Below the pieces are notes generated by a model. The model was given only the letters and a program-made list of their open reading frames with translations, made no database searches and was not told where the DNA came from. A stretch of 12,956 nucleotides of DNA from Candidatus Bipolaricaulia bacterium (GTDB lineage Bacteria; Bipolaricaulota; Bipolaricaulia; JBHIAT01). Every line of letters starts with the position of its first letter. Position 1 is the stretch's first letter. Location of the stretch: positions 1 through 12,956 of the forward strand of contig JBHIAT010000103.1 in NCBI GenBank assembly GCA_046758705.1, written 5' to 3'. Positions 3,688 to 10,487 of the stretch are shown piece by piece. The translations under genes and the position numbers were made by a program.

Positions 3688-5844
3688 CTAATCCCCTCCC
3701 CCGTCCGACGTGGACGCGAATGAGTCGGCAAACTGAAGTTGGTAAAGGGCGTGATACAGACCCCGTTGTCTGAGCAGCGCGTCGTGGGTCCCTTCCTCAA
3801 CGATCCGCCCTTGATGCAGGACGATGATTCGATTGGCATCCTGAACGGTCGAGAGGCGATGGGCGATGACCAGGGACGTCCTGCCCTTAAGGATCCGCTT
3901 CAGGGACGACTGAATGAGCTGCTCGGTGTGAGAGTCGATGTTGGCGGTCGCTTCGTCGAGAATCAGGATCTGGGGATCGAAGGCGACGGCCCGTGCGAAC
4001 GCAAGCAGTTGGCGTTGGCCGACGGAGAGTGTCTCACCCCGTTCGACCATCTCTGTCTGATAGCCGTTCGGCAGCATCTCGATGAAGTCATGGGCTTGCA
4101 CGAACTTGGCCGCCTCCACCGCCTGCGCCTCCGGGACCCGCTTGCCCTTCAACCGGATGTTGTCCATCACATCTCCAGAGAACAGAAAGACATCCTGAAG
4201 GACGACGGCCATCCGAGAGCGCAGCGCTTCCAGATCATAGTGCCAGATGTCGGTCCTATCGAGCAGGATTTTGCCCCGTTGCGGCTTGTAAAGCCGGAGC
4301 AGCAAGTTGATGATCGTCGTCTTCCCCGAGCCGGTCGGCCCGACGATCGCCACCCGCTCCCCGGGTGCAGCTTTGAACGAGATCCCGTTGAGTACGAAGT
4401 TGGGCTCATTGCTGTCTCCATCTCTATCTTCATCGGCGTCGTAAGCGAACCACACGTCCTGGAATTCGATCTGGCCACGGGGTGTGGGAAGCGCCTCGCC
4501 GTCGCGTCGCTCCTGCGGCTCATCGAGCAGCATGAAGATTCGTTCCGAGGCGGCCATGGCGCCCTGCATGATATTGTATTTATCGGCAAGGTCCCGGATC
4601 GGTTGGAACAACATGCGCACGAAACTCAGGAACGCAACCAGTGAACCGAGGGTAAAGAATCCGGCCGACACACCGAAACCGCCGCGCCAGATGATCAGGG
4701 CCACAGCCAGTGTACTGATCAATCCGATCAACGGTTGGAAGATCGCGAACACCATCAACTGTTTCATGTCGGCCCGGTACTTCTCCTTGTTGATCCCTCG
4801 GAACCGCTCCCGGCTATCGTGCTCCTGGGAGAAGATCTGGATGATGCGCATCCCGGAGATGCTCTCCTGGAGGAAGGCGTTGAGCTTGGCCAGCTTGACG
4901 CGCACCTCTCGGTATGCCTGTCGAGCGCGCTTTCTAAACACAAGGGTGATGTAGGAGATAATTGGGATGAAGATCAGGATCAGCCCGGTGAGCCTCGGGT
5001 TCATCTGGAACATCAGCGCGATGATCCCGAGGATCAGGAACAGATCCTTGAGCAGGTTGACGAGCACCGCGGTGTACATCTCATTGATCGCGGAGACATC
5101 GTTCGTCGCTCGGGTGACCAGGCGCCCGATGGGATTTCGGTTGAAGTAGCGCATCGGCAGACGAACCAGGTGAGCATGGATTCGCTCCCGCATGTCATGC
5201 ATGATCTGCTGGCCGGTGAGTTGCAGCAGGTAGACTTGGGCGAAGCCGAACACGAGCCGTCCGAACAGGATCAGGACGAACATCAGCGCGAGTTGGCTCA
5301 CCCCCCGCAGGTCATCATGTCGCAAGATGCCGAGGTCCGATCGATCCACCCGATTGAGCATCTGTTGGCTCACGATGTACCCACCGGGAACCGCCTCGAA
5401 CAACTCGGGGTAGCGTGCCACGACCTCCAGTCTTTGAGTGTCCTCGTTGCTTACCCACAGATAACGGATCCCGGAAAGGTAAGGCTCCAACGCCTGATGC
5501 GTCCCCGAATCGAGCGTGGCGGTATCGATCAGATATCTCCCATCTCCCAACGGGATCGCGGCTCGTTCATCGCCTTCCCCTTCCAGTGCCTCCAGATGGC
5601 GCGCCACCGCCTCGGACCCAGGTGGGGTCAGAATCGCCATGGGCAAGACGATAAACCGATCGATGGCCGTCCTGGTGATGAGGGGGAGGGCGAGTTCAAG
5701 GGCAGTGACGAACAGGATGAAGATGACAGAGGCAAGAAATAGCCGAGTGTACGGCCTGATATAGCCGATCAGCTGCCTCATCAGCCGGGCATCGTAGGCC
5801 CGACCGAGCGCCTCCTCCTCGAGGTAAGCTCTCCCTCCCATCAT
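3688..5844 (-). CDS. yheH: Heterodimeric ABC exporter subunit (TMD+NBD), YheH/BmrD-like, with large extracellular loop
   Basis: Walker A GPTGSGKTT, degenerate signature LSVGQRQ, canonical Walker B ILILDEATANID, H-loop IAHRLST. Long insertion after TM1. Overlaps the upstream subunit by 4 nt. Confidence 0.88.
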   Translation of the reverse strand: MMGGRAYLEEEALGRAYDARLMRQLIGYIRPYTRLFLASVIFILFVTALELALPLITRTAIDRFIVLPMAILTPPGSEAVARHLEALEGEGDERAAIPLGDGRYLIDTATLDSGTHQALEPYLSGIRYLWVSNEDTQRLEVVARYPELFEAVPGGYIVSQQMLNRVDRSDLGILRHDDLRGVSQLALMFVLILFGRLVFGFAQVYLLQLTGQQIMHDMRERIHAHLVRLPMRYFNRNPIGRLVTRATNDVSAINEMYTAVLVNLLKDLFLILGIIALMFQMNPRLTGLILIFIPIISYITLVFRKRARQAYREVRVKLAKLNAFLQESISGMRIIQIFSQEHDSRERFRGINKEKYRADMKQLMVFAIFQPLIGLISTLAVALIIWRGGFGVSAGFFTLGSLVAFLSFVRMLFQPIRDLADKYNIMQGAMAASERIFMLLDEPQERRDGEALPTPRGQIEFQDVWFAYDADEDRDGDSNEPNFVLNGISFKAAPGERVAIVGPTGSGKTTIINLLLRLYKPQRGKILLDRTDIWHYDLEALRSRMAVVLQDVFLFSGDVMDNIRLKGKRVPEAQAVEAAKFVQAHDFIEMLPNGYQTEMVERGETLSVGQRQLLAFARAVAFDPQILILDEATANIDSHTEQLIQSSLKRILKGRTSLVIAHRLSTVQDANRIIVLHQGRIVEEGTHDALLRQRGLYHALYQLQFADSFASTSDGGGD

Positions 5845-7565
5845 GGGACTCGAAGTTCCTCCTCCGCCTTCTGTAACTGATAGAACCGGTTGTAGAGCCC
5901 GCCGTAAGCGATCAGCTCCCGGTGGGTCCCCCGTTCGATGATCCGTCCTTGGTCGAGCACCACGATCTGGTCGGCGTTCTGAACGGCCGAGACGCGATGG
6001 GCGATGACGATCGAGGTCCGTGCCCGCAGCACCGCTCGCAAATTCTCCAGGATCAGTCGTTCCTTCTCAGCATCGACGGCCGAGAGGGGATCGTCGAGGA
6101 TGAGGATCTCGGGATCGCGGAGCAGCGCTCGGGCGATCGCCACCCGCTGTTTCTGGCCGCCGGAGAGCGTTACCCCTCGCTCCCCCACCTGGGTGTCAAA
6201 ACCGTCAGGAAACGCCATAATCTCGTCGTAGATCCCGGCGAGTTTGGCGGCGGTTATGATCTCTGCCTCGCTTGCTTGCGGTTGACCGAAGGCGATGTTC
6301 TCTCGGATCGTGGTGGAGAACAGGAACGGATCCTGGGGAACGATCCCCACCCTGCGCCGCAACTCGTCGAGCCGCAGGACGGTGACATCGACCCCGCCGA
6401 TCCAAACGGATCCTTCCGGTGGATCGAAGACTCTCAGGATGAGGTGGGCGATCGTGCTCTTTCCCGAGCCGGTCAGCCCGACGACACCCAAGACCGTCCC
6501 GGCTCCCACTTCAAGGTCGATCTCCTGCAGCGCCGGGGTCCTGTCCGGATAGGTAAAGCTCAACCGGGTAAACTCGATTCCATACTGCTCGGGGAATCTT
6601 CGAGGTCGTTCCACCTCCCGGACGGTCGGGACCACCTCCAGGATTCGGGTGATCCGGTTCATCGATGCCGTCCCCCGCTGCACCAGGTTGACGACCCAGC
6701 CGAGTGCCATCATCGGCCAAGCGAGCAACCCCAGATAGGTGATGAACGCCACAAAGTCCCCCAGACTGATCCCCCCGGTGATCACCGCTCGCCCACCCAG
6801 CCACAGGATGATCACTGTAGAAGATCCGGCGAGGAGCGCGATCAGCGGGTCGAATGCCCCCCAGACTCTGACGAGCGACATATTCTTCCGAACGAACGCT
6901 TCGTTCACCTGTCCGAACTCCTGCTCGGCCCCCCGTTCCTGAACGAACGTCTTGATGATGCGAATCCCGGCGAGGTTCTCCCGGACCTGCTCGGTGAGCC
7001 GCGCGAACGTCTCCTGAATCGCCTCGAACCTCCGATGGATCACCCGGCCAAACCCGGAGACGACCAGGGTGATGAACGGCAGGGGGATGAAGGCGTAGCC
7101 GGTCAGAGTCGGATTGATGTAAGTCATCGCTGCAAGCGAGAACGAGACCATGATCAGCGCGTCTGCTAGCGCGAGCACGCCGAACCCGCAGGCCATCCGG
7201 ACCGCATCGATATCGTTGGTCGCGTGCGCCATCAGGTCGCCGGTCTTCGTCCGATGGAAGAAGTCGGTGGACAGGGTCAGCAAATGTCCATAGAGTCGAT
7301 CCCGAAGATCCCGCTCAATCCGTCGGGATGCCCCGATGATCAACAGGCGCCACAGGAACCGGAGCAGAGTCACACCCAGAGCGATCCCGACGATGTAGGC
7401 GGCGTACCTCAGCAGATGGGCCGAGATCCCCAAGGAGAGCTGATCCACCACGCGACGGATAATCAACGGGATGACCAGTTGACCCGCGTCCAAAGCGAGT
7501 AGTGCTCCGACCCCGAGGATCATCCGCCATCGGTAACGCCACAGATACTTGAGGATTTCCTTCAT
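5841..7565 (-). CDS. yheI: Heterodimeric ABC exporter subunit (TMD+NBD), YheI/BmrC-like
   Basis: GDLMAHATNDIDAV, Walker A GLTGSGKST, canonical LSGGQKQR, degenerate Walker B ILILDDPLSAVD (Asp in place of the catalytic Glu). Confidence 0.9.
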   Translation of the reverse strand: MKEILKYLWRYRWRMILGVGALLALDAGQLVIPLIIRRVVDQLSLGISAHLLRYAAYIVGIALGVTLLRFLWRLLIIGASRRIERDLRDRLYGHLLTLSTDFFHRTKTGDLMAHATNDIDAVRMACGFGVLALADALIMVSFSLAAMTYINPTLTGYAFIPLPFITLVVSGFGRVIHRRFEAIQETFARLTEQVRENLAGIRIIKTFVQERGAEQEFGQVNEAFVRKNMSLVRVWGAFDPLIALLAGSSTVIILWLGGRAVITGGISLGDFVAFITYLGLLAWPMMALGWVVNLVQRGTASMNRITRILEVVPTVREVERPRRFPEQYGIEFTRLSFTYPDRTPALQEIDLEVGAGTVLGVVGLTGSGKSTIAHLILRVFDPPEGSVWIGGVDVTVLRLDELRRRVGIVPQDPFLFSTTIRENIAFGQPQASEAEIITAAKLAGIYDEIMAFPDGFDTQVGERGVTLSGGQKQRVAIARALLRDPEILILDDPLSAVDAEKERLILENLRAVLRARTSIVIAHRVSAVQNADQIVVLDQGRIIERGTHRELIAYGGLYNRFYQLQKAEEELRVP

Positions 7566-7928: not shown

Positions 7929-8135
7929 ATGACCCGAGGTATCGTCAAGTGGTTCGATGAGAAGAAGGGCTACGGATTCATCGAACGTGAAGACGGTGAA
8001 GATGTGTTCGTCCACTTCTCGTCGATCCAGACTGAGGGGTTCAAGACCCTCAAGGAGGGCGAGACGGTCGAGTTTGATGTGGTAGCGGGTGAGCGTGGCC
8101 CCAAAGCGGCCAACGTGGTGAAGGTGAATCCGTAA
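7929..8135 (+). CDS. cspA: Cold-shock protein (CspA family), 68 aa
   Basis: RNP1 KGYGFI and RNP2 VFVHFS; GPKAANV. AAGGAGGTG SD at 7915-7923 places the start at ATG 7929 rather than 7842. The specific paralogue name is not resolvable. Confidence 0.96.
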
Positions 8136-8291
8136 AAACACGGCTGGGCTCCAGCGATCCGATGACGCTCGGTCCGGCGCTTACCAGCGCTAATCATCAA
8201 CTGAAGCGACATGCAGATCCTGATCTCCGTGCACTTGGACCAAGGATGAAGTGTATTGCCGGAGTGGCGGTTAACGAGGAGATTGTCGGAA

Positions 8292-8320
8292 TTGACAATT
8301 CGGCATTCGTATGTTATAGT
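8292..8320 (+). promoter_or_regulatory. Near-consensus sigma70 promoter P1 (distal), upstream of the small-peptide array
   Basis: TTGACA (8292-8297), 17 nt, TGt-TATAGT (8315-8320) with an extended -10. Confidence 0.8.
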
Positions 8321-8350
8321 GGCAGATAAGAGTGAGAAAAGTGGTCAGGA

Positions 8351-8369
8351 AATATAGATGGTCTATATT
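8351..8369. promoter_or_regulatory. Perfect 8-3-8 inverted repeat, candidate operator
   Basis: AATATAGA-TGG-TCTATATT, located between promoters P1 and P2. Confidence 0.45.
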
Positions 8370-8484
8370 ATTAATCTTGTTCGATTCTTCGGATGAATCT
8401 CTTGGTATTCTGAGTTTTTCAAATTCACGATCGAGTATAATCCAATTGGATAAAGGGTTAGAGATTTACCCAGATCGGCTAACC

Positions 8485-8513
8485 TTGCAAAAGAGCCGAT
8501 TGAGTGTTATACT
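8485..8513 (+). promoter_or_regulatory. sigma70 promoter P2 (proximal) of the small-peptide array
   Basis: TTGCAA (8485-8490), 17 nt, TGt-TATACT (8508-8513) with an extended -10. Confidence 0.75.
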
Positions 8514-8533
8514 AAATTCTGAAGTTTGGATGA

Positions 8534-8559
8534 GATAGGGAATCGGGAGATTCCCTATC
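8534..8559 (+). other. 5' UTR stem-loop, 11-bp perfect stem with GNRA tetraloop
   Basis: GATAGGGAATC-GGGA-GATTCCCTATC, immediately before the SD at 8568-8577. Confidence 0.8.
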
Positions 8560-8583
8560 GATTATTAAAGGAGGTGAGAGCAG

Positions 8584-8679
8584 ATGCCGGAACTTCTAGA
8601 TGCAGTAGGGGGTCTGCTCATCACGGTGGGAATCGCCGTCCTGTTGATCAGGATCGGCGGTTACTTCGAAGGGGGTTAA
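8584..8679 (+). CDS. Small hydrophobic peptide, copy 1 (31 aa, MPELLDAVGGLLITVGIAVLLIRIGGYFEGG)
   Basis: AAGGAGGTGA SD 6 nt before the ATG; TAA at 8677-8679; paralogues differ mainly at synonymous sites. Confidence 0.88.
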   Translation: MPELLDAVGGLLITVGIAVLLIRIGGYFEGG

Positions 8680-8730
8680 TGCCCCCTGACTTTCCCGGTG
8701 GAACCCATCTGGCGGAGGAGGTGACAGCGG

Positions 8731-8826
8731 ATGCCGGAACTTCTAGATGCGGTAGGGGGTCTGCTCATCACGGTGGGGATTGCCGTCCTGTTGATGAGGA
8801 TCGGCGGTTACTTCGAAGGGGGTTAA
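8731..8826 (+). CDS. Small hydrophobic peptide, copy 2 (31 aa, MPELLDAVGGLLITVGIAVLLMRIGGYFEGG)
   Basis: GGAGGAGGTGA SD. Four nt differences from copy 1, all at codon position 3 (3 synonymous, 1 Ile>Met). Confidence 0.88.
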   Translation: MPELLDAVGGLLITVGIAVLLMRIGGYFEGG

Positions 8827-8878
8827 TACTCCCTGACTTTCCCGGTGGAACCCATCTGGCGGAGGAGGTGACAGTAAA

Positions 8879-8977
8879 GTGCCCATATTGCTCGAAGCGG
8901 TAGGTAGCCTGCTCATCTCGGTAGGAATTGCCGTGCTGATCATGAGAATCGGTGGTTACTTCGAGAGAGGAGATTAG
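8879..8977 (+). CDS. Small hydrophobic peptide, copy 3 (32 aa, MPILLEAVGSLLISVGIAVLIMRIGGYFERGD)
   Basis: GGAGGAGGTGA SD and GTG start; 25/31 aa identical to copy 2 despite many synonymous changes; TAG at 8975-8977. Confidence 0.86.
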   Translation: MPILLEAVGSLLISVGIAVLIMRIGGYFERGD

Positions 8978-8980
8978 TGG

Positions 8981-9124
8981 ATGCCAAATTTGGCAGAGGT
9001 GTTGATCAGCGTTTCCGTGCTATTGGTAGGGGTTGGAGCCTTGGTTGTTCTGTTGAAGCTGGCGATAGTTCTAGATCGAATGGAGAGACGGCTCAGAAAA
9101 GAGGAAGACGAGGAAGCAGACTGA
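8981..9124 (+). CDS. Small single-TM protein, divergent paralogue of the array peptides (47 aa, MPNLAEVLISVSVLLVGVGALVVLLKLAIVLDRMERRLRKEEDEEAD)
   Basis: AGAGGAGA SD inside the 3' end of copy 3; ATG 3 nt after its stop; MP start, hydrophobic core, basic then acidic tail. Confidence 0.8.
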   Translation: MPNLAEVLISVSVLLVGVGALVVLLKLAIVLDRMERRLRKEEDEEAD

Positions 9125-9166
9125 CCTTTATACGGAGGTTTATATCGGGTTGGATGTCGTCGTCAA

Positions 9167-9200
9167 CAGGGGGCAGCCGGACCGGCTGCCCCTGATTTTC
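9167..9200 (+). terminator. Probable intrinsic terminator closing the peptide operon
   Basis: GGGGCAGCCG (9170-9179) pairs with CGGCTGCCCC (9183-9192), extendable by CA/TG, and is followed by ATTTTCT. The U-tract is short. Confidence 0.65.
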
Positions 9201-9217
9201 TAAGAGGTGACATCGTT

Positions 9218-9544
9218 ATGCTGAAAATTGTCTCATCTGTGTTGATGCTGGCCCTAATCACCTTACTCATCGCTACCCCAGTCCTCGCCCAGGTCGCCAC
9301 AGAGCAGGACCTTAACCGCCTGGAGCAGAGGGTGGCCGCTCTTGAGGACCAGGTCCGGAACCTCGCGGGGCGGGTCGTGAACCTGGAGCAGCAACCGGCA
9401 TCGGCTGCCGAGGAGGGAATCCCCGGGTCAGAGGTAGCGGCTGCCATTATCGTGTCCCTGATCGTGATCGCTGGGTTCATCGCCGTCGAGGCGTTACGAC
9501 GAGGGGCAATCGAGTTCCCCCGACGTGGACGTGAGCTCGAGTGA
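9218..9544 (+). CDS. Hypothetical protein: signal peptide, coiled coil, C-terminal TM anchor with basic tail
   Basis: AAGAGGTGA SD; signal ending in PVLA/Q; heptad segment DLNRLEQRVAALEDQVRNLAGRVVNLEQQ; TM segment VAAAIIVSLIVIAGFIAV followed by RR. Confidence 0.85.
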   Translation: MLKIVSSVLMLALITLLIATPVLAQVATEQDLNRLEQRVAALEDQVRNLAGRVVNLEQQPASAAEEGIPGSEVAAAIIVSLIVIAGFIAVEALRRGAIEFPRRGRELE

Positions 9545-9548
9545 ATCG

Positions 9549-10487
9549 GTGAACCTATTCCTGTTCACCGGGGATCGTTATCTCCGAGAGCGGGCCGCTC
9601 GCAGGAAGATCAAGGAGATCTGGGACGCGCTTCGTGAACCGGATGGACCTCTCGGGGAGGTCCACCTGGACGGTGAGGAGATCACCTACCCGGCGCTGCT
9701 GGAACGATTGGGCCGTTCCCTGTTCCATGTCGGTGAGATCGTCTGGATCCGGAACGCCGATCGGTTGACCCAACCGGAGCAGGTCGCCGATCTCCTTGCT
9801 GGGGGTCTCCCCGAGGGGGTTCACCTGATCCTCGATGCCGAGCGGCTCGATCGAAACGGAAAACTCTATCGGACCGTCGCAAATGTCGGAAAGATCGAGG
9901 TACTCTCCTTCCAACGCCGGGAACTCCGCAGCTCGGTCAAACAGATGCTCCGCGAGCGGAGGCTTGAGCTGTCGGAAGCCGGATTCCATTACCTGGTCGA
10001 ACATATAGAGCCCGACCTGATGCGCATCGACAGCGAACTGGAGAAGCTGTCTCGCTACCATGTGCCCGGCCGCCGGGAGCTCGACCTTGAAGCGGTGCAG
10101 GGGCTGTTGTTCACCACCGCGGGGACCCGGGTGTTCGATTTCCTGGACGCGTTGGGAAATCGGCGGCTCCGGGATGCCCTCGACGCCCTGGAGGCGTCGC
10201 TGCGATCCGAGGAGGAGCCAGGACGCCTCTTCTTTATGGCCGCCGGGCATATCCGGGCATTGCTCAGGATCAGATCCCTGGTGGAGACAGGATATTCCGA
10301 CGCCCAGATCGCTCGCACGACAGACGATTATCCATGGCGGGTGAAACGACGTCGCCGACAGGCAAACAACTTTGCGATGAAGGAACTGATCACGCTCATC
10401 GGGCGGTTCCATCAAGCCGACGTCCGGATCAAGCGCGGTGAGATAGAGTTGGAGGACGCGCTGTTAGGGATTGTTCTGGCATTATAA
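9549..10487 (+). CDS. holA: DNA polymerase III delta subunit
   Basis: N-terminal LFLFTGDRYL, SLF motif, DLMRIDSELEKL, RVFDFLDAL, and C-terminal ADVRIKRG; about 312 aa. The GTG at 9549 is preferred over 9525 because it avoids an overlap. Confidence 0.88.
   Translation: MNLFLFTGDRYLRERAARRKIKEIWDALREPDGPLGEVHLDGEEITYPALLERLGRSLFHVGEIVWIRNADRLTQPEQVADLLAGGLPEGVHLILDAERLDRNGKLYRTVANVGKIEVLSFQRRELRSSVKQMLRERRLELSEAGFHYLVEHIEPDLMRIDSELEKLSRYHVPGRRELDLEAVQGLLFTTAGTRVFDFLDALGNRRLRDALDALEASLRSEEEPGRLFFMAAGHIRALLRIRSLVETGYSDAQIARTTDDYPWRVKRRRRQANNFAMKELITLIGRFHQADVRIKRGEIELEDALLGIVLAL

Follow-up and report, generated by a model that had tools for sequence, protein, structure and literature searches.

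Two families of short single-pass membrane proteins encoded by a candidate four-gene operon in Bipolaricaulota

Introduction

Do four short open reading frames (ORFs) in tandem, carried by an uncultured hydrothermal-vent Bipolaricaulota bacterium, encode genuine proteins, and what might such proteins do? The ORFs lie in an operon at 8485-9200 of the window (the whole stretch of 12,956 nucleotides that was analysed), and an initial annotation based on the letters alone had read them as paralogous micro-peptide genes. We know of no well-studied cultured member of the Bipolaricaulota and of almost no work on the envelope biology of the phylum. The analysis reported here separates the four ORFs into two conserved, strongly signalled and mostly unannotated families of small membrane proteins, A (ORFs 1-3) and B (ORF 4), which co-occur, sometimes in one operon, and on which purifying selection is very strong. 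They illustrate clearly how real genes can fall short of the usual gene-calling length limits, and they provide a concrete target, namely four peptides of 3-5 kDa within reach of synthesis or expression.

Organization of the locus and expression signals

Every element described previously for this locus, a promoter, a GNRA hairpin, four ORFs with Shine-Dalgarno (SD) sites and a terminator, was recovered at its position (Table 1), and the promoter-like site, the SD sites and the terminator agree with the proposal of a single transcription unit with strong signals. The start codon of ORF 4 is 3 nt downstream of the ORF 3 stop, with a GAGAGGAG run 8 nt upstream of that start. Rfam returned no match in 8136-9200, and its four weak hits elsewhere in the window were all below gathering scores. 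The four data sets listed as carrying sequence of 8250-9300 are all DNA contig sets from one hydrothermal-vent study, and none is an RNA data set.

Table 1. Features of the four-gene locus, in coordinates of the window.
Feature	Position	Strand	Basis
Sigma-70-like promoter, TTGCAA-17-TATACT, TG before the -10	8485..8513	+	Consensus scan, 9/12 matches
5'-leader hairpin, 11-bp stem, GGGA (GNRA-type) tetraloop	8534..8559	+	RNA fold
SD of A1, AGGAGGTGA	8569..8577	+	Sequence, direct repeat
A1 (ORF 1), family A, 31 aa, ATG start, single-pass membrane peptide	8584..8679	+	ORF, homologues, selection, hydrophobicity
SD of A2, AGGAGGTGA	8716..8724	+	Direct repeat family D3
A2 (ORF 2), family A, 31 aa, ATG start, recent duplicate of A1 (I22M)	8731..8826	+	ORF, repeat, selection
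SD of A3, AGGAGGTGA	8863..8871	+	Direct repeat
A3 (ORF 3), family A, 32 aa, GTG start, older paralogue	8879..8977	+	ORF; 79% DNA identity to A2
B (ORF 4), family B, 47 aa, ATG start	8981..9124	+	ORF, homologues, selection
Intrinsic terminator, GC-rich 11-pair stem (9169-9193) and T-run	9169..9200	+	Terminator scan, RNA fold

Comparable signals accompany the related loci. Each of the 23 distinct upstream regions has an SD-like site before the first family A gene, and 16 of them have a sigma-70-like promoter, in 14 cases of the form TTGACA-18-TGcTATA; upstream of the loci in genome family f6 a TTG...TAnnnT pattern is invariant (6/6 aligned regions), and in the operons of f6 a hairpin with a T-run was also recognized by eye 3' of B. 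The leader of the present operon (8514-8600, 87 nt) folds at -27.8 kcal/mol (z = -3.59). No equivalent of its hairpin was seen by eye upstream in the other genome families, and this 5' hairpin appears to be without conservation outside this genome. Pairing between the GYF codons of one cistron and the SD site of the next is possible but not significant (z only -1.7 and -1.4). Our best reading of the signals taken together is that the operon would be strongly expressed.

Conservation of the coding sequences

Family A consists of peptides of about 31-36 aa with four invariant residues (L5, G16, G25 and Y27) and a [RK]-[ILV]-G-G-Y-[FL] motif following one hydrophobic helix, and ORFs 1-3 all fit the alignment of this family (alignment A1; profile match E 1e-16 to 7e-15). 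A profile search found intact homologues in 43 of 184 Bipolaricaulota genomes, including 16/18 genomes of f4, 18/19 of f6 and 3/3 of f11, and the search for related loci used the nine closest sequences of alignment A1 as query. The f4 genomes carry one A copy each, so amplification is not essential to function. Across 26 distinct family A coding sequences from many genomes the frame is open throughout, and over 30 codons the first position varies in 26 columns, the second in 8 and the third in 30, with a mean pS of 0.73 and a mean pN of 0.19 over 325 pairs. Single comparisons are more extreme still, with 24 synonymous differences and one non-synonymous difference separating L013 from L015 (Sd 24, Nd 1), and 15 and none separating L023 from L028 (Sd 15, Nd 0). 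Family A peptides have thus remained unchanged while synonymous sites became saturated, and ORFs 1-3 are real genes, far beyond chance. A non-coding repeat or an assembly artefact was also considered and is ruled out by the codon-position pattern of variation.

The three copies in this genome differ in age. ORFs 1 and 2 differ, as first noted, at four coding sites that are all third-codon positions, but the changes are not all silent, since three are synonymous and the fourth (ATC/ATG) replaces an isoleucine by a methionine. Their similarity extends over an entire 147-nt unit (8569-8715 and 8716-8862; 95% identical, spacer included), so the pair alone says little about selection, and the purifying selection originally read from the copies is instead borne out by ORF 3 and by the other genomes. 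ORFs 1 and 2 are the product of a recent 147-nt duplication; a contig from a related strain is shorter by exactly 147 nt, with 8649 joined to 8797, and therefore has one unit fewer. The unit specific to the second copy (8698-8826) was found without differences on separate contigs from three runs (X1-X3) of one study; the window itself may derive from that study, and these contigs are therefore not independent support. ORF 3 differs from ORF 1 by seven residue replacements and one extra residue, and from ORF 2 by six replacements. Over 30 codons the comparison with ORF 1 gives about 14 synonymous and about 10 non-synonymous differences (Nei-Gojobori; pS 0.57, pN 0.15), and the range against both copies is 0.53-0.57 for pS and 0.14-0.15 for pN.

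ORF 4 had been counted as a fourth paralogue. The close paralogy holds for ORFs 1-3, whereas ORF 4 belongs to a separate conserved family that has only a distantly similar transmembrane core (hhalign 82% and 69%), a likeness detectable only from profile to profile. It forms row 1 of the family B alignment (alignment A3), with 28-51% identity to the other 11 rows, and the profile of this alignment matched 91 database proteins. ORF 4 has a short N-tail, one transmembrane helix, a charged amphipathic C-terminal helix and an acidic tail. Family B is characterized by the core LL-x-x-[VI]-G-[AG]-[LM]-I/V...K-[LI]-A with a charged helix after it, and some homologues carry an N-terminal extension resembling a signal peptide (ORFs of 65 and 84 aa). 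Homologues occur in 38 of the 184 genomes, a distribution nearly that of family A, and pS again exceeds pN (0.69 against 0.10 for L042 and L046). For both families the proposal of coding ORFs subject to purifying selection was upheld: the frames of homologues are intact and pS is far greater than pN.

The impression that the peptides belong to no recognised family also held, with no significant match in Pfam, NCBIfam, PHROGs, PADLOC or the PDB. Family A matched no family in Pfam and NCBIfam at E-values up to 10, the best Pfam E-value among the 26 members of alignment A1 was only 0.1, and the best hit among PDB sequences had an E-value of 0.46; for family B the best Pfam hit reached 17.1 bits, against a cut-off of 28.2. 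Neither family matched PHROGs or PADLOC, and the best ESM Atlas score was 0.79 for each, which is below the useful level. All named relatives of A and B are "hypothetical protein" entries and all are from Bipolaricaulota. The exact ORF 4 protein is already present, unnamed, in public protein collections, and the exact ORF 1 and ORF 3 sequences are absent from a collection of 15 billion proteins. A literature search on small proteins and gas vesicles of Bipolaricaulota yielded nothing on these peptides.

Distribution and genomic neighbourhood

Families A and B occur in only one part of the phylum. Of the 184 genomes, 35 have both, 8 have A without B, 3 have B without A and 138 have neither, a tally in which related genomes are not independent; the co-distribution is largely at clade level, and shared ancestry alone could explain it. 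The two families share an operon in f6, where the order is A-A'-B followed by a terminator, with B last, and again in the present genome. The 36-aa A' form stands alone in five f6 genomes (71-87% complete), where the family B profile gave no match, so B is not needed everywhere. In f2, f4, f7 and f11 family A adjoins recO and/or a beta-ketoacyl synthase gene (fabF), and in f2, f4 and f7 family B lies between phoH/7TM-HD and ligA. Inheritance of these genes is shown to be vertical and housekeeping-like.

Membrane character and proposed assembly

The A copies have net charges of -2, -2 and -1 and contain no Cys, the computed charge agreeing with that first given for copies 1 and 2. Their cores have a mean hydrophobicity of 0.7-0.8 and a hydrophobic moment of 0.13-0.15, and for the cores of A and B together the hydrophobicity is 0.7-0.86 with a low moment; these values are transmembrane-like, in keeping with the initial annotation of hydrophobic membrane peptides. 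Family A peptides are transmembrane and not amphipathic. Conservation around the A helix favours no single face (conservation moment 0.02-0.06) and runs in stripes along two opposite faces of small residues (L5-G9-L12-G16-R23-Y27 and A7-L11-S14-A18-L21-G25). Such all-round conservation on two small-residue faces would fit a high-abundance oligomeric proteolipid, which is plausible, but conservation of the whole helix would be equally expected if each peptide sat inside a larger complex. Prediction of an A-B complex from alignments A1 and A3 scored 0.03 against a mark of 0.32, a run made without controls that is not evidence either way.

The position of the charges points to the orientation of the peptides in the membrane. 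In A the sole basic residue, R23, is C-terminal, as is the basic helix in B, which together with the signal-peptide-like extension of some B homologues argues for an N-out/C-in topology. The Pf3 coat protein, a mini-protein inserted by YidC in the N-out/C-in orientation, likewise has an acidic N-tail, one hydrophobic helix and basic residue(s) after it; the resemblance is one of layout only, and it suggests that the present peptides may follow the same insertion route and adopt the same topology. Unlike the Pf3 coat protein, they have no phage context and no basic DNA-binding tail, and there is no homology.

Our tentative proposal, which we consider quite possible, is that the members of these two Bipolaricaulota-specific families are abundant proteins that span the membrane once, N-out/C-in, and assemble with one another there. 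One strongly expressed operon would supply three small integral membrane proteins of family A and one of the distantly related family B, with the tandem A copies raising dosage. The contribution of family A would be a single transmembrane helix, acidic at its N-tip and bearing the conserved R-I-G-G-Y-F-E motif as an interface, and that of family B a similar helix followed by a charged one. Both would insert N-out/C-in and pack side by side via their small-residue faces, giving homo- and hetero-oligomers in the cytoplasmic membrane, where they would act as abundant structural or modulatory housekeeping components and be neither toxins nor secreted peptides. That A, A' and B go further and form an abundant, self-contained hetero-oligomeric proteolipid ring, pore or lateral lattice of single helices, a membrane-organising element of one Bipolaricaulota clade that would be unprecedented and without a large partner, we regard as unlikely. 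A self-assembling membrane element of that kind, or modulators of a 7TM-HD signalling enzyme as considered below, would be new biology either way; if the peptides are only lineage-specific membrane fillers, they would be a modest addition to small-protein catalogues.

Comparison with known small membrane proteins and alternative explanations

The bacterial proteins MgrB, AcrZ, MgtS and KdpF are small, cross the membrane once and bind larger membrane proteins, with MgrB acting on PhoQ and KdpF on KdpABC. Families A and B resemble them in having fewer than 50 residues, one transmembrane helix and no signal peptide, and in being often missed by annotation, but are unrelated to them in sequence (the MgtS-like and YldA rows of the ESM Atlas scored only 0.76, below the useful level). 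Also unlike the MgrB-type proteins, they lack a consistently adjacent partner and form two paralogous families with tandem copies and near-consensus promoters. By analogy, A and/or B could serve a larger membrane protein as accessory or regulatory subunits, and the best candidate for it is a 7TM-HD (PgpH-like) receptor with an intracellular HD hydrolase; we judge this somewhat unlikely. In six loci (L051 in f2; L043, L046 and L052 in f4; L049 and L050 in f7) a 7TM-7TMR_HD + HD gene is immediately followed by the B gene in the same orientation, a seventh (L048 in f4) has one gene in between, and conservation all round the helix would suit a peptide buried in a complex. Several observations count against it. 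B is located elsewhere in f6 and in the present genome, and in f4 it apparently has its own promoter abutting the start codon (a by-eye reading). The g10 genomes possess A and B, yet the 7TM-HD gene was found in 0/3 of them (75-93% complete) and phoH is then directly followed by B. The 7TM-HD gene is conversely far more widespread than A and B, occurring without them in f8 (4/4), f9 (4/4), f10 (1/1) and f5 (20/50), and family A never adjoins it in the loci examined.

A tandem array of small, hydrophobic, single-helix peptides, with a copy number that differs between strains, also brings to mind the type I toxin arrays ldr/rdl and ibs/sib, which likewise consist of small hydrophobic ORF repeats of variable copy number, and A and B might then depolarise the membrane as toxin-like or holin-like pore formers. 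This is very unlikely. Type I toxins are usually tightly repressed, and the strong SD sites and near-consensus promoters found here are the opposite; no minus-strand promoter-like site that could drive an antisense RNA was detected in 8100-9700 by a consensus scan, which cannot exclude one. The peptides are moreover negatively charged and without a PHROGs or PADLOC match, and they occupy a fixed chromosomal position with syntenic, family-wide rather than patchy inheritance across the clade. The suggestion of an exported amphipathic peptide organised like the Staphylococcus psm-alpha operon was not supported, and we think it barely probable that the A peptides are surfactant or antimicrobial peptides of this kind or resemble leaderless/two-peptide bacteriocins. 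The psm-alpha genes are several, tandem, leaderless and paralogous on one highly expressed transcript; the present operon likewise groups several leaderless 31-aa paralogues, and upstream of it the opposite strand carries two genes for ABC exporters (3688-7565). Phenol-soluble modulins (PSMs), however, are amphipathic, surface-active, exported helices, and the uniformly hydrophobic, transmembrane core of A, with its low moment, argues against a PSM-like role. Bacteriocins are expected to be cationic, whereas these peptides are anionic; in other genome families the neighbours of A vary and include no conserved transporter or immunity gene; and strict purifying selection with synteny across families, reflected in vertical inheritance at a fixed locus beside recO and/or fabF, is unlike bacteriocin loci. 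For A and B as gas-vesicle accessory proteins we see only a slim chance. One halophilic lineage (L012, L034 and L035) has an extra A+B pair inside its gvp cluster, in the same orientation and flanked by a 333-aa coiled-coil ORF and a GvpF/L-like ORF, and a GvpA-family match was obtained in 6/41 relatives, this genome included, all six of which have A. Against this, A is present in 7/7 f4 genomes, of which 0/7 gave a GvpA-family match, the A and B genes lie on other contigs than gvp in the five remaining gvp-bearing genomes, and the halophilic lineage has retained a separate A-A'-B operon besides the embedded pair. Within that lineage the two genes of the extra pair moved together, and, were A and B to build a ring, pore or lattice, their recruitment into the gas-vesicle gene cluster of a halophile would indicate an adaptable assembly.

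Organization of the operon

The stretch 8485-9200 of the window agrees with the sequence description in the initial annotation, with a promoter-like site, a hairpin, four ORFs and a terminator-like stem in a single transcription unit with strong signals (see table). The fold of the leader has z = -3.6 (RNA fold, window), and an Rfam search returned no match within the operon stretch of the window. The sequence AGGAGGTGA stands 5' of each of ORFs 1-3, and a GAGAGGAG run precedes ORF 4, which starts 3 nt past the stop codon of ORF 3. The module is real, conserved and largely unannotated, and comprises two small-membrane-protein families restricted to part of the phylum Bipolaricaulota: family A (ORFs 1-3, or A1-A3) and family B (ORF 4).

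Features of the operon in the window, and the A and B pair embedded in a gas-vesicle cluster at locus L034 of a relative
Feature	Positions	Strand	Basis
Promoter-like site TTGCAA-17-TATACT, TG upstream	8485-8513	+	consensus scan
Hairpin, 11-bp stem, GGGA loop	8534-8559	+	RNA fold
ORF 1 (A1), 31 aa	8584-8679	+	ORF reading
ORF 2 (A2), 31 aa	8731-8826	+	ORF reading
ORF 3 (A3), 32 aa, GTG start	8879-8977	+	ORF reading
ORF 4 (B), 47 aa	8981-9124	+	ORF reading
GC-rich 11-pair stem with T-run, ending the unit	9169-9200	+	consensus scan, RNA fold
Embedded A and B pair	L034 3856-3954, 4149-4289

At the ends of A genes (8660-8745 and 8807-8893), the codons for G-Y-F-E are able to pair with the Shine-Dalgarno (SD) site of the next cistron (GUUACUUC with GGAGGUGAC), which would result in translational coupling; the fold z values of -1.7 and -1.4 are not significant. 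Some 265 nt before A1, at 8292-8320, a spacer richer in AT (GC 0.48) contains a further near-consensus promoter-like site (TTGACA-17-TATAGT with TG, 11/12 matches). This site is not followed by any convincing ORF; it could drive a small RNA or an additional leader of greater length. A related strain from run X4, one of the sequencing runs of a hydrothermal-vent study, differs from the window at many positions in 8284-8479.

Coding status and copy number of family A

Copies 1 and 2 form a 147-nt tandem unit and differ at four third positions, one of which changes I22 to M. These differences had been read as purifying selection, but the 95% identity spans ORF and spacer alike, so they reflect recency rather than selection and the case from the window by itself is weaker than was claimed. 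Coding under purifying selection is nevertheless upheld by copy 3 (pS 0.57 and pN 0.15 against copy 1) and, decisively, by homologues in other genomes. An intact short frame is present in 19 of 41 related genomes (single-protein query) and in 43 of the 184 genomes of the phylum (profile search), and 15 further loci come from records titled Bipolaricaulota, Bipolaricaulia or Acetothermia, apart from a few MAGs that bear the label Thermotogae or Fraserbacteria. Among 26 distinct coding sequences, second codon positions vary at 8/30 sites and third positions at 30/30, with a mean pS of 0.73 and a mean pN of 0.19 (325 pairs). Some species pairs encode an identical peptide with synonymous sites saturated; the loci L023 and L028 differ by Sd 15 and Nd 0, and L013 and L015 by Sd 24 and Nd 1. 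ORFs 1-3 are real genes.

All 23 distinct regions upstream of a first A gene contain an SD-like site, and 16 of them a promoter-like site, 14 of these being near-consensus (TTGACA-18-TGcTATA). Six of the seven regions missed by the pattern belong to the coded family f6; in an alignment, TTG...TAnnnT is common to all six without variation and at promoter spacing. In the f6 operon the -35 element is preceded at about 25 nt by a conserved box, AGGTRAC-N-AAYTTC (around 1400-1415 in L010, L013, L015, L016 and L018, and 245-260 in L014), which has nine positions invariant in 6/6 sequences and may be a regulator site.

The unit specific to copy 2 is present, identical, on contigs of three runs from the vent study. 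In the related strain of run X4 (95-99% alike), a contig joins 8649 to 8797, exactly one 147-nt unit fewer, leaving two A copies against three in the window. Either copy number is polymorphic or this contig is an assembly collapse of the repeat; under both, the older state is A-A3-B.

Family B

The initial annotation had described four paralogous genes, which holds for ORFs 1-3. ORF 4 is not a close paralogue, its similarity being seen by profile-profile comparison (probability of the family A alignment 82% against ORF 4 and 69% against the B alignment) across the transmembrane core LL-x-x-VG-x-x-[VI]-x-[LF]-x-[KR]-[LI]. It is a second conserved family, with homologues in 38/184 genomes of the phylum (single-protein search) and 91 database proteins, none of which (0 of 91) carries a Pfam domain; all that are named are 'hypothetical protein' from Bipolaricaulota, Bipolaricaulia or Acetothermia. 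Family B is likewise under purifying selection (L042 against L046, pS 0.69, pN 0.10). In genus g4 of family f4 (L042, L043, L045, L048), B is preceded by GTTTGACTTCCC...TGTCATA abutting the first ATG, and a second ATG lies 9 nt beyond, which points to B having a promoter of its own and a leaderless mRNA.

Distribution and gene order

The distribution of B mirrors that of A. Both occur in f2 (A 1/1, B 1/1), f4 (16/18, 16/18), f6 (18/19, 13/19), f7 (4/9, 5/9) and f11 (3/3, 2/3), and neither was found in f3 (0/74), f5 (0/50), f8 (0/4), f9 (0/4) or f10 (0/1). Including two profile re-checks, 35 genomes have both, 8 have A only, 3 have B only and 138 have neither, a tally of mutually related genomes that is no statistical test. 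Some absences of B may be misses, since its phylum-wide search started from a single protein; a profile re-check of the eight A-only genomes still found no B.

The f6 operons share a common architecture with that of the window. A 31-aa A gene is followed by A' (a 36-aa form with a three-residue insertion), B, and a hairpin and T-run terminator, an order that parallels the inferred older A-A3-B state. Outside f1 and f6, A and B are unlinked. In f4, A is convergent with recO (a RecO-like N-terminus is visible in 6/7 loci examined and Pfam-confirmed in L005); in f7 and f11 it has recO on one side and, on the other, a beta-ketoacyl synthase gene transcribed divergently, and in f2 it adjoins the latter gene (A-adjacent genes Pfam-confirmed in L058, L059, L061 and L062). 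B lies downstream of phoH and a gene for a 7TM receptor with an intracellular HD hydrolase (7TM-7TMR_HD + HD, PgpH-like; 7TM-HD) in f2, f4 and f7, and upstream of ligA in the f4 loci L047, L048 and L052. Those B-flanking genes abut in f6 with no B between them, and the window genome likewise has a phoH/7TM-HD locus without B. A and B thus have old, stable and separate positions among housekeeping genes elsewhere, and were united in a single operon in f1 and f6. One halophilic lineage has an additional A and B pair within a gas-vesicle cluster. Co-occurrence, operon fusion and this joint relocation are evidence that A and B work together.

The cluster (L034 900-7800, also L012 and L035) is from Great Salt Lake-type Bipolaricaulota. 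GvpO, the only Gvp ORF checked, has a Pfam match, and other ORFs read as GvpA-, GvpN-, GvpF/L-, GvpJ/M- and GvpK-like. The window genome has GvpA-family genes on contig C60.

Predicted topology and function

Peptides of family A begin with an acidic tip (E3, D6). Their helix is hydrophobic throughout (mean hydrophobicity 0.7-0.8, moment 0.13-0.15) and is followed by R-I-G-G-Y-F-E; the net charge is -2. In the alignment L5, G16, G25 and Y27 never vary and L21 and G26 hardly do. The conserved positions do not gather on a single face (moment 0.02-0.06) but fall on two opposite stripes (L5-G9-L12-G16-R23-Y27 and A7-L11-S14-A18-L21-G25), each containing small residues. In family B a short N-terminal tail leads into a helix of mean hydrophobicity up to 0.86; a charged, amphipathic helix follows, and an acidic tail closes the peptide. 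Some homologues are longer (61-88 aa), and 65- and 84-aa ORFs start with a second, signal-peptide-like hydrophobic segment; the N-terminus of the part that is conserved would then lie extracellularly. Together with the positive charges past the helix in both families, this points to an N-out/C-in topology, and the short forms would insert independently of a signal.

The four products are small, hydrophobic and under strong selection, and the two families that they represent are co-inherited. The initial annotation recognised no family, and neither A nor B matched any curated family or solved structure; they are new as families, ordinary as a kind. The reading that we tentatively favour, at a little short of an even chance, is that the four peptides are abundantly produced, take up an N-out/C-in orientation in the membrane and associate side by side, via two small-residue faces, in homo- and hetero-oligomers, to which B would contribute a cytoplasmic charged helix. 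Such an assembly would do housekeeping work in the membranes of this clade, whether as a structural element or by modulating other membrane proteins.

For B, the idea of a specific large partner such as the 7TM-HD enzyme has its appeal, but we consider it unlikely. Against it, both A and B are retained in genus g10, where the enzyme family was found in 0/3 genomes; families with the enzyme and without A or B are common; and B in f4 apparently (by eye) has its own promoter abutting the start codon. Gas-vesicle function, suggested by the embedded pair, shares a small remainder of probability with the toxin and export readings; the association is confined to one lineage, and of seven f4 genomes all (7/7) have A and none (0/7) a gas-vesicle match. 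The fixed synteny, the presence of consensus promoters and SD sites, and a consensus scan of 8100-9700 that detected no antisense promoter make a type I toxin unlikely. The export readings, whether the psm-alpha-like peptide proposed earlier or a bacteriocin, fail on amphipathicity and charge, on the vertical inheritance of the genes and on the absence of transport genes conserved beside them.

Neighbouring genes in the window

The operon is flanked by ordinary genes, with a cold-shock-domain gene upstream and a 108-aa membrane/coiled-coil ORF and the gene for the DNA polymerase III delta subunit downstream, followed by ORFs that read as yajC-like and secD-like. The 108-aa ORF (9218-9544), directly past the terminator, has two hydrophobic segments, one N-terminal and one C-terminal, on either side of a heptad-like coiled coil, and shows a weak, sub-threshold DivIC match (22.1 bits vs 28.9). 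It extends beyond the start of the holA-like gene (9525), and the exact protein is present in public collections without a name. Two adjoining ABC exporter-type genes (574 and 718 aa) occupy 3688-7565 on the minus strand, a pair not kept beside A in other genomes; the 718-aa product has, by eye, an apparent extra segment of about 130 residues past its first hydrophobic stretch.
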